Origin: a virus
Taxonomy: Duplodnaviria; Heunggongvirae; Uroviricota; Caudoviricetes
IMG/VR virus record: IMGVR_UViG_2880361019_000006
Strand: one strand, 5' to 3'
DNA: 36,382 nucleotides
How positions within the stretch are numbered: position 1 is the stretch's first letter; every line of letters begins with the position of its first letter. The position numbers are program-made. Below, one piece after another: positions 31,501-34,500 of this stretch.

Positions 31501-34500
31501 TAACGTGAAATACCGTTATGAGTTTACGGACACACTGGGGGTGGTGACGTCATTCAGTTATGCCAATGCCAAAGATGAGCAAAAAACGCATTACAGTGAT
31601 ACCCGCTGGCATGAGGATTCCGTGCGTAACCGCTGGTTCAGCGTAATGGCGGGGCCGTCTGTGCGCGTGAATGAATGGTTCAGCGCGTATGCGATGGCGG
31701 GGGGGCTTACAGCCGCGTGTCGACTTTCACCGGGGATTATCTCCGCGTAACTGACAACAAGGGGAAAACGCACGATGTGCTGACCGGAAGTGATGACGGT
31801 CGCCACAGCAACACGTCTCTGGCGTGGGGGGCTGGCGTGCAGTTTAACCCGACCGAATCCGTGGCCATTGATATTGCTTATGAAGGCTCCGGTAGCGGTG
31901 ACTGGCGTACCAACAGTTTCATCGTTGGTGTCGGTTATAAATTCTGATTAGCCAGGTAACACAGTGTTATGACAGCCCGCCGGTTCAGGCGGGCTTTTTT
32001 GTGGGGTGAATATGGCAGTAAAGATTTCAGGTGTACTGAAAGACGGCACAGGAAAACCGGTAGAGAACTGCACCATTCAGCTGAAAGCCAGGCGCAACAG
32101 CACCACGGTGGTGGTGAACACGATGGCTTCAGAAAACCCGGATGAAGCCGGGCGTTACACAATGGACGTTGAGTACGGTCAGTACAGCGTCATTCTGTTG
32201 GTGGAGGGATTCCCGCCGTCACATGCCGGGACCATCACAGTGTATGAAGATTCTCAGCCGGGTACGCTGAATGATTTTCTCGGTGCCATGACGGAGGATG
32301 ATGTCCGGCCGGAGGCACTGCGTCGTTTTGAACAGATGGTGGAAGAGGCAGCGCGTCACGCTGAGGAGGCGAAGAAGAATGCCGGAGAGGCAGAGACGTC
32401 AGCGAGGAATGCGGGTATATCAGCCGGCCAGGCGGAAAAGAGTGCAGTAAATGCTGAGACTTCTGCAGGGGATGCATCGGAGTCAGCCCGGCAGGCGACG
32501 GAAAGTGCAGCCTCAGCAAAGCAGTCAGAGGATGCGTCCTCGTCCTCGGCTTCTGCGGCCGCTCAAAAAGCCAGTGAGTCATCACAAAGTGCAGCAGAAG
32601 CTGAATTGTCAAGAAAGACGGCAGAAAGTGCAGCCGGTAATGCATCCAGGGATGCAACGACCGCAGCAGAAAAAGCCCGGGAGTCAGCAGAAAGCGCACA
32701 GTCAGCGGAACAAAGCAGGATAGCGGCGGAAGAGGCCGTAAACCGAATCCCCACCGTGGTGGGACCTCCCGGGCCAAAGGGGGAACAGGGGCCCGCTGGC
32801 CCTCAGGGGCCGAAAGGCGACAGGGGGGAACGGGGAGAGACCGGTCTGACGGGAAGTACAGGTCCACAGGGGCCAAAGGGAGATACCGGTGCAGCAGGCC
32901 CGGCAGGCCCGGCAGGCCCACAGGGACCGAAAGGAGAAACAGGAGCGGCAGGTCCGGTGGGGGCTACCGGACCTCAGGGGCCGAAGGGAGACCCGGGCGA
33001 GACACAAATCCGTTTTCGTCTGGGGCCGATGAGCATTATTGAGACAAACAGCTATGGCTGGTTCCCGGATACAGATGGTGCGCTCATCACCGGACTGACC
33101 TTTCTTGACCCCAAAGATGCCACACAGGTTCAGGGGATGTTTCAGCATTTGCAGGTCAGATTTGGTGACGGGCCGTGGCAGGATGTTAAGGGGCTGGATG
33201 AAGTGGGCAGTGATACAGGCAGAACAGGAGAATGACATGAACATACTAAAAAAACTTATGCAGCGTCTGTGTGGTTGCGGAAAGCATGATGGCCGTGAAC
33301 ACGGGCAGTCGCTTACAGCACAACTGCGACTGGGGCCGGCAGACATCCTGGAGTCAGATGAGAATGGTATTATCCCTGAGCAGGCCAGGGTAATCACGCA
33401 GGTGGTGATACTGGATGCGGATAAAAAGCAGATACAGTGCGTGGTAAGACCGCTGCAAATTCTGCGTGCTGACGGGACGTGGGAAAATATTGGCGGGATG
33501 AAGTAACCCGACAGCTTCACAAAACCGGAGTCCGGCTCCGGTTTTTTGTTGTCATGTCATGGTGATGTTTGTTAATGAAGTTAAATTTATTTTGGCTTGA
33601 TAATGGAGTCTTATCTTTTGCAAGACTGATAATGGTGTGTGAAAGCATTGTGATAAGTAAGATGCTTCAACAGGAAATCAAGTAAAATGTTAATGAAGTT
33701 AATGGGGGTTTTATTATGCCAATAAATTTAACACCATATCTAACAGCGAGTGGGGGACTGGGGGAAATACCGCAGGATACTCTTTCTGGCATACGAACAC
33801 TGGCTTTTAACGGAGGAGCTCAGGTTCAGATGGGGAGCACTATTGTTACAATACGTTCTGTCTTTTTAGGCTTCTTTATGGGAAGTGTAAGCCCTGAAGG
33901 ATTATCAGAGAGAGCTTTACGAACTGCATTGAATAATGTTAATCGTCTTGAACGCGACCTTAATGGAGGGCTATCCGGCCGCCAGATTTTAGCAAGTATA
34001 CCCAGCCCGTATGCTTCTCCACCTCGTCCTTCTGTAATGCAAACAGAGTTGGTGTTAGAGCAAATAGAAAAATGCTCATTTAATGTTAACTCGTCATCTC
34101 TGAGGGCGACTGAAGAGGCATTAACATGCCCGATTACATTATGCATCCCTGAGCATGGTGTGATTATGAGAAATGCTGGAGATTCAGATGTATGTACTTT
34201 ATATGATAAAGAATCATTAAAACATCTTGTTAACACAAGTTCACCTCATCCTCTGAGCAGAGAAAAAATAACAGAGTCAATGATTGTTAAGGAAAACTCG
34301 TGCTATTTTGATTTCACATCAGGAAGTATTAAAAATGTTCGTGGTGAGATAACTAGACTATAAGATGTTAGAACATATTGACTGATAAGTGTAATTCACA
34401 GACATCTTTTCAGTTTTTTCTGTTAATTTTCTAATTGATGGCCTGTATACAGGGATAAAAGGAGAGGGTATTGTCTGGACATTTCTGTTAGCATAATTGG

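Follow-up and report, generated by a model that had tools for sequence, protein, structure and literature searches.

The 36,382-nucleotide stretch of viral DNA analyzed here (the window) very probably carries the side-tail-fiber cassette of a lambda-like prophage of attaching-and-effacing Escherichia, encoding a three-chain fiber that would work as outlined below. The fiber is an ordinary, already known member of EPclA (EHEC prophage collagen-like protein A), a characterized family of collagen-containing side tail fibers that are encoded on lambda-like prophages in pathogenic Escherichia (Ghosh et al., 2012, PLoS One 7:e37872, PMC3368898). Architecture, biophysics and distribution have been published, and the copy in the window adds nothing new to them. 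The useful outcome is a correction that concerns the small gene directly downstream, which, judged by its sequence, is a conserved and apparently translated paralog of the fiber's own tip domain.

Domain architecture of the fiber gene

The domain content and the reading frame of the fiber gene can be read directly from the window (Table 1). The ORF starts at ATG 32012 and ends with the TGA at 33233-33235. The ORF finder had placed the start at GTG 32006, two codons further 5', and we prefer the ATG because the homologs and lambda Stf begin with MAVKISG. The 407-aa product matched PHROG families annotated as "tail fiber protein" (E about 1e-138), and the Pfam domains found on it were, in order, PF08400 (phage_tail_N), PF01391 (Collagen) and PF06820 (Phage_fiber_C). 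PF08400 aligned to residues 1-133 (E 9.7e-69, 230 bits versus a cut-off of 26.6) and PF06820 to residues 333-396 (E 3.6e-34, 117 bits versus a cut-off of 25), with an E-value of 2.6e-15 for the collagen model.

The region PCoil comprises 117 aa by our boundaries and consists of 30% Ala, 21% Ser and 13% Glu, with a dominant periodicity of 3.5 residues both for Ala and for Ala plus Ser. A preliminary description of the window had correctly reported an Ala/Ser/Glu-rich composition, but its reading as a passive linker does not stand, as PCoil of EPclA is a demonstrated trimeric coiled coil (PMC3368898). Similarly, the C-terminal domain, put at 80 aa, is indeed distinct (about 76 aa, PF06820), but it does have an assignment, namely the known PfC module, for which trimerization has been demonstrated in EPclA (PMC3368898). 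An HMM search, proposed as a check for the C-terminal 80 aa and for the 89-aa ORF that follows, assigned both to PF06820. In a sequence search of the PDB, no structure was found for the fiber tip domain (PfC-A) or for its downstream copy (PfC-B), and the matches were limited to the lambda Stf N-terminal domain and collagens.

Table 1. Features of the side-tail-fiber cassette, in coordinates of the window.
Feature	Position	Strand	Basis
Terminator-like hairpin and T-run, interval between lom-like gene and fiber gene	31974..31995	+	Pattern scan, consensus match only
Side tail fiber gene, EPclA type, 407 aa plus stop	32012..33235	+	ORF, Pfam, PHROG, identity to VT1-Sakai H0004
PfN, lambda-Stf-type N-terminal (tail collar) domain, aa 1-133	32012..32410	+	PF08400, PDB 9e7m
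PCoil, Ala/Ser/Glu-rich heptad region, aa 134-250	32411..32761	+	Composition, periodicity
Col, 27 Gly-X-Y triplets, aa 251-331	32762..33004	+	Translation, PF01391
PfC-A, C-terminal knob domain of the fiber, aa 332-407 (about 76 aa)	33005..33232	+	PF06820
Shine-Dalgarno AGGAG of the small ORF, inside the last codons of the fiber	33226..33230	+	Read from sequence
Small ORF, 89 aa: 27-aa N-terminal peptide and PfC-B domain (aa 28-89)	33237..33506	+	PF06820, phrog_576
Terminator-like hairpin and T-run, end of the two-gene unit	33521..33545	+	Pattern scan

A pattern scan detected terminator-like hairpins before the fiber gene (8 pairs, 7 GC, then TTTTTTG) and at the end of the two-gene unit (11 pairs, then TTGTTGT).

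Membership in the EPclA family

The order PfN-PCoil-Col-PfC is identical in EPclA and in the fiber of the window, which has PfN, PCoil, a single uninterrupted Col and PfC, and is encoded at a prophage tail-fiber position. That the whole architecture belongs to a described family had been missed in the preliminary description. The fiber falls into the same size class as ECs2231 (Sp12), listed in Table 2 of PMC3368898 with 407 aa in all, of which 81 aa are collagen and about 116 aa PCoil. For ECs2941 (VT1-Sakai H0004, 437 aa), 384 of 404 aligned residues are identical (95%, gaps aside). Apart from a few substitutions, the two proteins differ in triplet number (37 in H0004 versus 27 here, by -11 and +1), and these are allelic differences only. 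The H0004 gene likewise follows J and lom and precedes the same 89-aa ORF. The exact 407-aa protein is on record in only three assemblies and is present on CP034212.1. The closest protein cluster carries the name Escherichia albertii. At the DNA level, matches to the locus among complete E. coli genomes do not exceed 96.8%.

Recombinant EPclA, studied on one representative, forms dumbbell-shaped trimers in which an Ala/Ser coiled coil and a genuine collagen helix are combined with a C-terminal domain that trimerizes, and SEC-MALLS, AUC, CD and EM demonstrated the trimer and the triple helix (PMC3368898). Based on 95% identity to a family member, we infer that the fiber of the window forms a trimer with a collagen triple helix as well. 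The original characterization as a short side tail fiber with a collagen-like triple helix agrees with this biochemistry of near-identical proteins.

The collagen run and its length variation

The collagen-like repeat had been reported at 32762-32998 with about 26 triplets. It is confirmed, and the true run ends 6 nt further downstream at 33004, so that 27 Gly-X-Y triplets (81 aa) follow each other without interruption. Pro occupies the X position in 14 of the 27 triplets. By our arithmetic, the chance of 27 Gly residues at a period of 3, at a Gly content of about 7.5%, is roughly 1e-30 and negligible. Within Col, the 9-bp unit GCAGGCCCG is repeated 2.9 times in tandem (32894-32919), which accounts for the additional triplet relative to VT1-Sakai.

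A comparison of repeat numbers across homologs, in which a loss of frame would have counted against the repeat, left the claim standing. The Gly-X-Y block is in frame in all 120 best fiber homologs, with lengths from 4 to 38 triplets, and all indels in the region are multiples of 3.

Relation to lambda Stf

Residues 1-94 of the fiber match the lambda Stf collar domain in PDB 9e7m (chain Ta) at 87 of 94 positions, so that the earlier assignment of a lambda Stf N-terminal domain holds, together with the PF08400 match. In Ur-lambda, twelve copies of the Stf N-terminal domain make up a collar at the gpV/gpM junction (PMC12617516), and by analogy the N-terminal domain of the present fiber may dock at the same junction. 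The gene for lambda Stf (774 aa) also lies after J and lom, and the role of Stf as an accessory adsorption fiber is presumably the same. However, Stf is unlike the fiber of the window in everything past about residue 130. In lambda Stf, which needs Tfa, a long proximal rod leads through a hinge to a distal rod that resembles T4 gp37 and binds OmpC. The fiber of the window instead continues with the Ala/Ser coiled coil, collagen and PfC, and is followed by a PfC paralog and not by a Tfa (Caudo_TAP) gene. In agreement with the preliminary description, no Tfa family match was found 3' of the fiber gene in Pfam, PHROGs or NCBIfam. Beyond residue 133, Pfam detected Collagen and PfC only, and no match to a gp37-like distal region. 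As far as sequence comparison can tell, the fiber is a relative of lambda Stf solely through its N-terminal domain.

Alternative readings of the fiber gene

The Gly-X-Y run might be a spurious reading of G+C-rich repeats, with the real gene, if any, in another frame or on the other strand. Stop-free ORFs do exist on the opposite strand (32235..32921, 228 aa, and 32702..33520, 272 aa), and one further forward frame is open across the repeat, but the Gly-X-Y frame alone joins two strongly scoring flanking domains in one ORF, it survives the multiple-of-3 indels of the 120 homologs, and the protein has already been expressed and characterized (PMC3368898). The flanking Pfam domains, the frame conservation and the H0004 alignment led us to reject this reading, which we regard as close to impossible. 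It is hardly more plausible, and still highly improbable, that the ORF is a bacterial surface adhesin housed in a prophage and acting on host tissue. Streptococcus Scl1/Scl2, Bacillus BclA and Legionella Lcl likewise have a prokaryotic, unhydroxylated Gly-X-Y helix nucleated by a flanking globular trimerization domain, but they are secreted or anchored on the cell surface, have other trimerization domains, and lack homology outside the repeat. An adhesin would fit with weak NCBIfam matches to SclB, Lcl and SclA, with a bacterial role left open by Ghosh et al. (PMC3368898), and with the adjoining type III effector cargo (nleG, nleA). The NCBIfam matches (NF038329, NF038330 and NF046116, with 54.3, 38.4 and 45.2 bits versus cut-offs of 325, 400 and 500) are far under the cut-offs and cover the Gly-X-Y part alone, and membership in the Scl/Lcl-like adhesins was rejected on these grounds. 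Moreover, the protein begins with the lambda Stf collar domain, the gene is at the stf position after J and lom, neither a signal peptide nor a wall anchor was recognized by eye, and the homologous fiber is located on tails, as demonstrated for Sp5 by immuno-EM (PMC5155283) and for phi24B by cryo-EM (phi24B preprint).

Proposed working of the fiber

The side-tail-fiber reading suggests the following picture, in which trimer, collagen helix, coiled coil and collar attachment are transferred from the literature on close homologs. Three 407-aa chains would be expected per fiber, and the N-terminal Stf-type domains would form a collar at the junction of tail tube and tip, similar to Ur-lambda, with 12 copies and four fibers. 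About 117 residues of Ala/Ser heptad coiled coil and the triple helix of 27 triplets would together make a hinged stalk, with predicted lengths of roughly 17 nm (coiled coil) plus 23 nm (collagen), based on textbook values for the rise per residue. Recombination or slippage in the repetitive DNA could change the stalk length by whole Gly-X-Y triplets. The C-terminal PfC would trimerize, nucleate the collagen helix and make the distal knob. Presumably, the knob binds a receptor and touches the cell surface first, in a reversible manner, which would speed adsorption ahead of the binding of the central fiber J to its own receptor.

A second copy of the tip domain downstream of the fiber gene

The preliminary description had the 89-aa ORF coupled to the fiber stop codon, and this part is borne out: the start ATG 33237 lies 1 nt past the fiber stop and is separated by a 6-nt spacer from AGGAG. 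The same ORF had been called unrelated, which is incorrect. PF06820 matched it over the full profile (positions 1-64 of 64, E 1e-34, 119.2 bits versus a cut-off of 25), phrog_576 matched it full length (E 7.5e-60), and PfC-B and the fiber tip domain PfC-A are 34% identical (E 2e-12). Both domains open with a common R-x-GP motif. By these similarities the ORF is a diverged paralog, a second copy of the fiber's own tip domain. Two other readings were rejected. In the case of a lipoprotein or signal peptide suggested by "LCGCG" in the small ORF, no hydrophobic core was seen ahead of it (by eye), and in the case of stop-codon read-through of the fiber, frame 0 meets the next stop after about 17 codons.

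Conservation and co-occurrence of the ORF were observed directly. Its dN/dS ratio of 0.06-0.22 indicates purifying selection at the protein level, the 27-aa N-terminal peptide is conserved, and the exact 89-aa sequence was found on 957 contigs. Matches to PfC-A and to PfC-B numbered 296 phage records each and were distributed identically over organisms, and these counts suggest that the 89-aa ORF always accompanies PfC-A. The pair occurs in long-tailed as well as in short-tailed Stx phages. A profile search with PfC against 1.84 billion representatives gave 82 matches, mostly Escherichia-type prophage fragments, and no annotated distant relative. Four matches with multiple repeats were inspected: P0263 has the appearance of a genuine, distantly related tandem array of PfC-like units adjoining collagen, and the remaining three resemble repeat proteins of no relation. 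The AF2 monomer model of the 89-aa protein, built from a 6-sequence alignment, was unusable (mean pLDDT 49.4, pTM 0.34), and no confident AlphaFold model was obtained for this PfC domain in the phi24B preprint either.

The short-tailed Stx phages carry EPclB fibers (933W L0121, Sp5 ORF67/ECs1228, phi24B gp61) with adjoining 89-aa ORFs (933W L0122, Sp5 ORF68, phi24B gp59, AU6Stx1 "atfT"); Sp5 ORF68 and phi24B gp59 are homologs of the ORF in the window. Coiled coil, collagen, PfC-A and the PfC-B ORF have the same layout in the EPclB loci as in the window, PfC-A and PfC-B share more than 90% of their residues with the copies in the window, and the stop-start junction is the same. In contrast, EPclB (645 aa) has two collagen blocks with a Pf2 repeat between them, compared to one block here, and is attached to a podovirus tail adaptor instead of a lambda-type tail tip. 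Binding to BamA has been proposed for the related EPclB fiber and is now disputed (phi24B preprint).

Possible roles of the 89-aa protein

By analogy with these close homologs, the product of the 89-aa gene would be a translated, translationally coupled knob paralog that is not essential. Sp5 ORF68 is listed among non-essential late genes (PMC5155283). In a phi24B virion preparation, two peptides unique to gp59 were detected with 3 + 3 spectra (trace), versus 2267 PSMs for the fiber, which argues against a stoichiometric virion component. Soluble, stable trimers of recombinant EPclA were made in a laboratory strain (PMC3368898), and the small ORF is nowhere mentioned in that study, so that it is probably no obligatory chaperone.

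In the literature, we found no demonstrated function for the 89-aa ORF. Tentatively, we consider that it could be an accessory protein on the fiber tip, held by PfC-PfC contacts, with a part in assembly or adsorption and dispensable on laboratory hosts. In a more far-reaching and rather doubtful form of this idea, the PfC paralog would be a new kind of fiber-tip partner for collagen-stalk fibers, in place of Tfa. If so, a free copy of the knob would dock on the fiber knob or transiently co-assemble with it, and could set the register of the chains, cap the fiber tip or influence the host range. Such a partner would explain the linkage to PfC-A across unrelated tail types, the purifying selection and the dispensability in K-12.

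For Sp5 ORF68, the idea has been raised that the gene is mainly a silent reservoir cassette, with recombination between the collagen DNA and the ORF that could swap the fiber tip from PfC-A to PfC-B and alter specificity (PMC5155283). A natural in-frame deletion of this kind was indeed found in L007 (GCA_038404665.1, 2 samples), with 13 collagen triplets joined to PfC-B at "...ERGP|ADILESD", and the R-x-GP motif is present at the start of both PfC domains. However, L007 is one contig that begins inside the collagen repeat, and no PfC-B tip was seen among the 120 best fiber homologs, which were not checked one by one. A silent cassette needs no Shine-Dalgarno sequence at optimal spacing, no ATG and no conserved 27-aa peptide, all of which the ORF has, and neither purifying selection on the protein nor translation in phi24B would be needed. 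We therefore regard a mainly silent cassette as unlikely. Far less probable still is a programmed +1 ribosomal frameshift that fuses the fiber to the small ORF and yields a minor, PfC-B-bearing variant fiber. The AU5Stx1 and AU6Stx1 records annotate the fusion as "atfT", in AU6Stx1 together with a slippery sequence and a pseudoknot, both predicted, and such a fusion was also provided for in the phi24B proteomics database. The small ORF is in the +1 frame, and in each of the four loci compared this frame contains no stop over the 138 nt upstream of it. A T7 run is found in the podoviral loci where the shift is proposed, and two 494-aa database proteins exactly match the fusion expected from a shift at this run. 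The latter are singletons, though, and could reflect 1-nt deletions or homopolymer sequencing errors, and the T-run is absent from the window and from VT1-Sakai (GGG ATG TTT CAG). A shift at this site in the window would halve PfC-A and add about 31 out-of-frame residues, and +1 re-pairing of tRNA-Glu at the stop (GAA UGA C) would, we infer, be poor. The Sp5 authors found no frameshift signal (PMC5155283), and there is no junction peptide among the matches listed in the phi24B peptide table. The missing slippery T-run, together with the lack of a junction peptide among the phi24B peptides listed, led us to reject programmed frameshifting.

Gene context and distribution

The context of the cassette was also observed directly. 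Upstream of the fiber gene are the lambda-type tail genes V, M, L, K, I and J, followed by lom, and downstream of the cassette is type III effector cargo (nleG and nleA). The lom gene next to the fiber gene is frameshifted, indicating some decay in the prophage. EPclA-type fibers probably help to decide which strains lambdoid prophages adsorb to, and the family is relevant because the lambdoid prophages with such fibers are vehicles of Shiga toxin genes and of type III effectors. Among complete E. coli genomes, 693 of 5426 contain the fiber cassette in most of its length.

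Features of the fibre locus, with window coordinates unless fibre residues (aa) are given
Feature	Position	Strand	Remarks
L	24124..24822		
P22-antirepressor-like ORF	25668..26444	+	P22_AR_N and P22_AR_C; between L and K
K	26460..27236		
lom-like outer-membrane gene	31349..31947	+	two overlapping ORFs through a frameshift
lom-like ORF, first piece	31349..31750	+	Ail_Lom profile positions 1-119
lom-like ORF, second piece	31675..31947	+	Ail_Lom profile positions 118-199
Terminator-like hairpin	31974-31995		just 5' of the fibre gene
phage_tail_N (PF08400)	fibre aa 1-133		Pfam, E 9.7e-69
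Collagen (PF01391)	fibre		Pfam, E 2.6e-15
Phage_fiber_C (PF06820)	fibre aa 333-396		Pfam, E 3.6e-34
Antisense ORF, 228 aa	32235..32921	-	stop-free
Antisense ORF, 272 aa	32702..33520	-	stop-free
Terminator-like hairpin	33521-33545		just 3' of the small ORF
nleG	33716..34363		PF06416
Mutator-family transposase remnant	34566..34841	-	
441-aa ORF	35057..36382	-	no Pfam match on record

A collagen-containing side tail fibre of the EPclA family

The stretch 32762..32998 translates into an unbroken Gly-X-Y repeat in the frame of ORF 32012..33235 (+), and the run continues for 6 nt beyond the end first assigned to it, giving 27 triplets (nt 32762..33004). ATG 32012 was preferred as start codon over the GTG 32006 of the ORF finder because homologues and lambda Stf, the side tail fibre of Ur-lambda, begin with MAVKISG; the protein therefore has 407 aa. 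All three of its Pfam domains are found in one single frame, and PHROGs assign it to 'tail fiber protein' families (E about 1e-138), which confirms the preliminary description of a side tail fibre with a collagen-like repeat.

The 117 residues between the N-terminal domain (PfN) and the collagen block had been described as an Ala/Ser/Glu-rich linker. The composition is as described (30% Ala, 21% Ser, 13% Glu), but the single dominant periodicity, 3.5 residues for both Ala and Ala+Ser, is a heptad pattern and not that of a disordered linker. Within the collagen block, 14 of the 27 triplets have Pro at X, and charged residues make up 19%. Two antisense ORFs span the coiled-coil, collagen and PfC (C-terminal domain) DNA; lacking support as genes, they are probably artefacts of a stop-poor repeat on a G+C-rich, repeat-biased coding strand.

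Proteins of this type were named EPclA-D by Ghosh et al. 2012 (PMC3368898), with EPclA defined as PfN-PCoil-Col-PfC; the Sakai and EDL933 copies of EPclA in that study include a 407-aa class with a PCoil of 116 aa and a collagen domain of 81 aa. A representative recombinant EPclA was a soluble trimer, seen by EM as a hinged dumbbell, with melting of the collagen helix at 42 C and of the coiled coil at about 52 C, and PfC served as the trimerisation module and re-nucleated the helix (PMC3368898). In the cryo-EM study of Ur-lambda (PMC12617516; PDB 9e7m), Stf residues 1-94 were resolved, and 12 copies assemble, where gpV meets gpM, into a collar that gives rise to four trimeric fibres; 87 of the 94 residues of this collar domain are identical in the fibre described here. 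Homologous collagen fibres were located on the tail by immuno-EM for Sp5 (PMC5155283) and by cryo-EM for phi24B. Given this published family, its structure and its tail location, the fibre represents an ordinary allele within that family. It is already known, and publications on near-identical proteins have largely worked out its mechanism.

Distribution and repeat-length variation

The 1.6-kb cassette has matches in 364 phage records, nearly all from Stx-converting or lambdoid Escherichia phages, with at least 80% of its length matched in 134 of them. Among 5426 complete E. coli genomes, 4702 match the cassette in part and 693 match most of it, in up to 17 places per genome; none has a cassette DNA match above 96.8%. 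CP034212.1 and two draft contigs encode exactly this fibre protein, flanked by the same neighbours, and the closest protein cluster (95% identity) bears the name Escherichia albertii.

The Gly-X-Y run is in frame in all 120 best protein homologues, with 4 to 38 triplets. Alignment with VT1-Sakai H0004, a 437-aa EPclA, pairs 404 residues, of which 384 are identical; the fibre lacks 33 aa at one place and has a 3-aa insertion at another, in both cases within the collagen domain. A 9-bp tandem repeat (GCAGGCCCG, x2.9) lies at the place of the insertion. In view of the homologues and the H0004 comparison, the objection that the repeat could belong to a spurious frame fails.

The small ORF encodes a paralogue of the fibre tip domain

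The ATG of the 89-aa small ORF (33237) follows the fibre stop codon (TGA 33233-33235) after one base, and AGGAG at 33226-33230 precedes it with a 6-nt spacer, in line with the coupling proposed earlier. The ORF ends at 33506. As terminator-like hairpins lie on either side, the fibre gene and the small ORF form one bracketed unit.

The two products had been considered unrelated, which was incorrect. Residues 28-89 of the small ORF match the whole PF06820 profile (E 1e-34), the family also detected at the fibre C-terminus. The small ORF matches phrog_576 over its full length, and BLASTP against the last 79 fibre residues gave 34% identity (E 2e-12). The RefSeq name is already 'phage tail fiber C-terminal domain-containing protein'. 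The PfC alignment resolves two clean subfamilies, PfC-A from fibre C-termini and PfC-B from the free ORF. Common to both are R-x-GP at the start and, close to the end, D-G-x-W.

In pairwise comparisons with three phage loci, dN/dS of the small ORF lies at 0.06-0.22, the PfC-B domain being almost invariant, and the identical sequence is present on 957 contigs; given these data, it is a real gene. PfC-A and PfC-B each match 296 phage records; the breakdown by organism is the same for the two and spans lambda-like long-tailed and Sp5/933W-like short-tailed phages. From the equal record counts alone, we infer complete co-occurrence.

No PDB entry covers PfC, and AF2 modelling of the 89-aa protein as a monomer reached a pLDDT of 49. 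A PfC profile search of 1.84 billion representatives returned only 82 proteins, mostly fragments. In one metagenome representative (P0263, 565 aa), four tandem modules of ~70 aa resembling the C-terminal half of PfC (…ILxVRxADGTWxEIP…) are placed upstream of a Gly-X-Y block. This arrangement suggests that modules related to PfC occur outside Escherichia prophages and are not necessarily C-terminal.

Role of the small ORF

In Sp5, the homologue of the small ORF, ORF68, is listed as a non-essential late gene (Mondal et al. 2016, PMC5155283). The supplement of the phi24B virion proteome (bioRxiv 10.64898/2026.04.10.717836) contains two peptides unique to the homologue gp59, ADGTWENIGGMK and VITQVVILDADKK, with 3 spectra each versus 2267 PSMs for the phi24B fibre; the protein is therefore translated and at most a trace virion component. 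Recombinant EPclA made in a laboratory strain was obtained as trimers that were soluble and stable, and the small ORF is not mentioned in PMC3368898, which argues against an obligatory chaperone. Our tentative reading, held with slightly less than even confidence, is that the small ORF encodes an accessory tip or assembly partner acting via PfC-PfC contacts.

The authors of PMC5155283 suggested that Sp5 ORF68 is a reservoir for tip variation, and a natural in-frame deletion (L007 1..291; GCA_038404665.1, JAYDZQ010000147.1), which fuses 13 collagen triplets to PfC-B (…GERGP joined to ADILESDENG…), shows that collagen-to-PfC-B swaps can occur. The first base of this contig is already within the collagen repeat, the 5' part of the gene being off the contig; a SopA-like effector gene follows the fusion. 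Such a swap, however, leaves the translation signals of the small ORF and its purifying selection unexplained, and a mainly recombinational reservoir appears unlikely to us. We consider a +1 frameshift fusion of the two products highly improbable, even though the AU6Stx1 GenBank record names the small ORF 'atfT' and predicts a +1 frameshift for it. The small ORF does lie in the +1 frame, which contains no stop codon over the preceding 138 nt. A T7 run is present at about locus position 2900 in two podoviral Stx phages, TL-2011c and AU6Stx1 (loci L004, L006), and two database proteins of 494 aa (P0005, P0006) are fusions by a 1-nt shift at the T-run (…VQGFFSICRS…). Yet each of these is a singleton, the T7 run is absent in the window and in VT1-Sakai, and the authors of PMC5155283 found no frameshift signal in Sp5. 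The phi24B search database included hypothetical fibre-ORF fusions; no junction peptide occurs in the part of the peptide table that was covered, and the main text of that study mentions neither gp59 nor a frameshift or fusion.

Surrounding genes

Lambda-type tail genes precede the fibre: tube protein V, M, L, an antirepressor-like insert, K, I, a 1152-aa J and the lom-like gene. The insert occupies an unusual moron position, within the tail-tip module. The split lom-like gene, of which the source genome annotation has the 133-aa piece only, is probably a pseudogene, indicating a degree of decay in the prophage. Type III effector cargo (33716..36382) lies directly 3' of the fibre cassette and includes, besides nleG, the 441-aa minus-strand ORF, which we take to be nleA (NleA-like).
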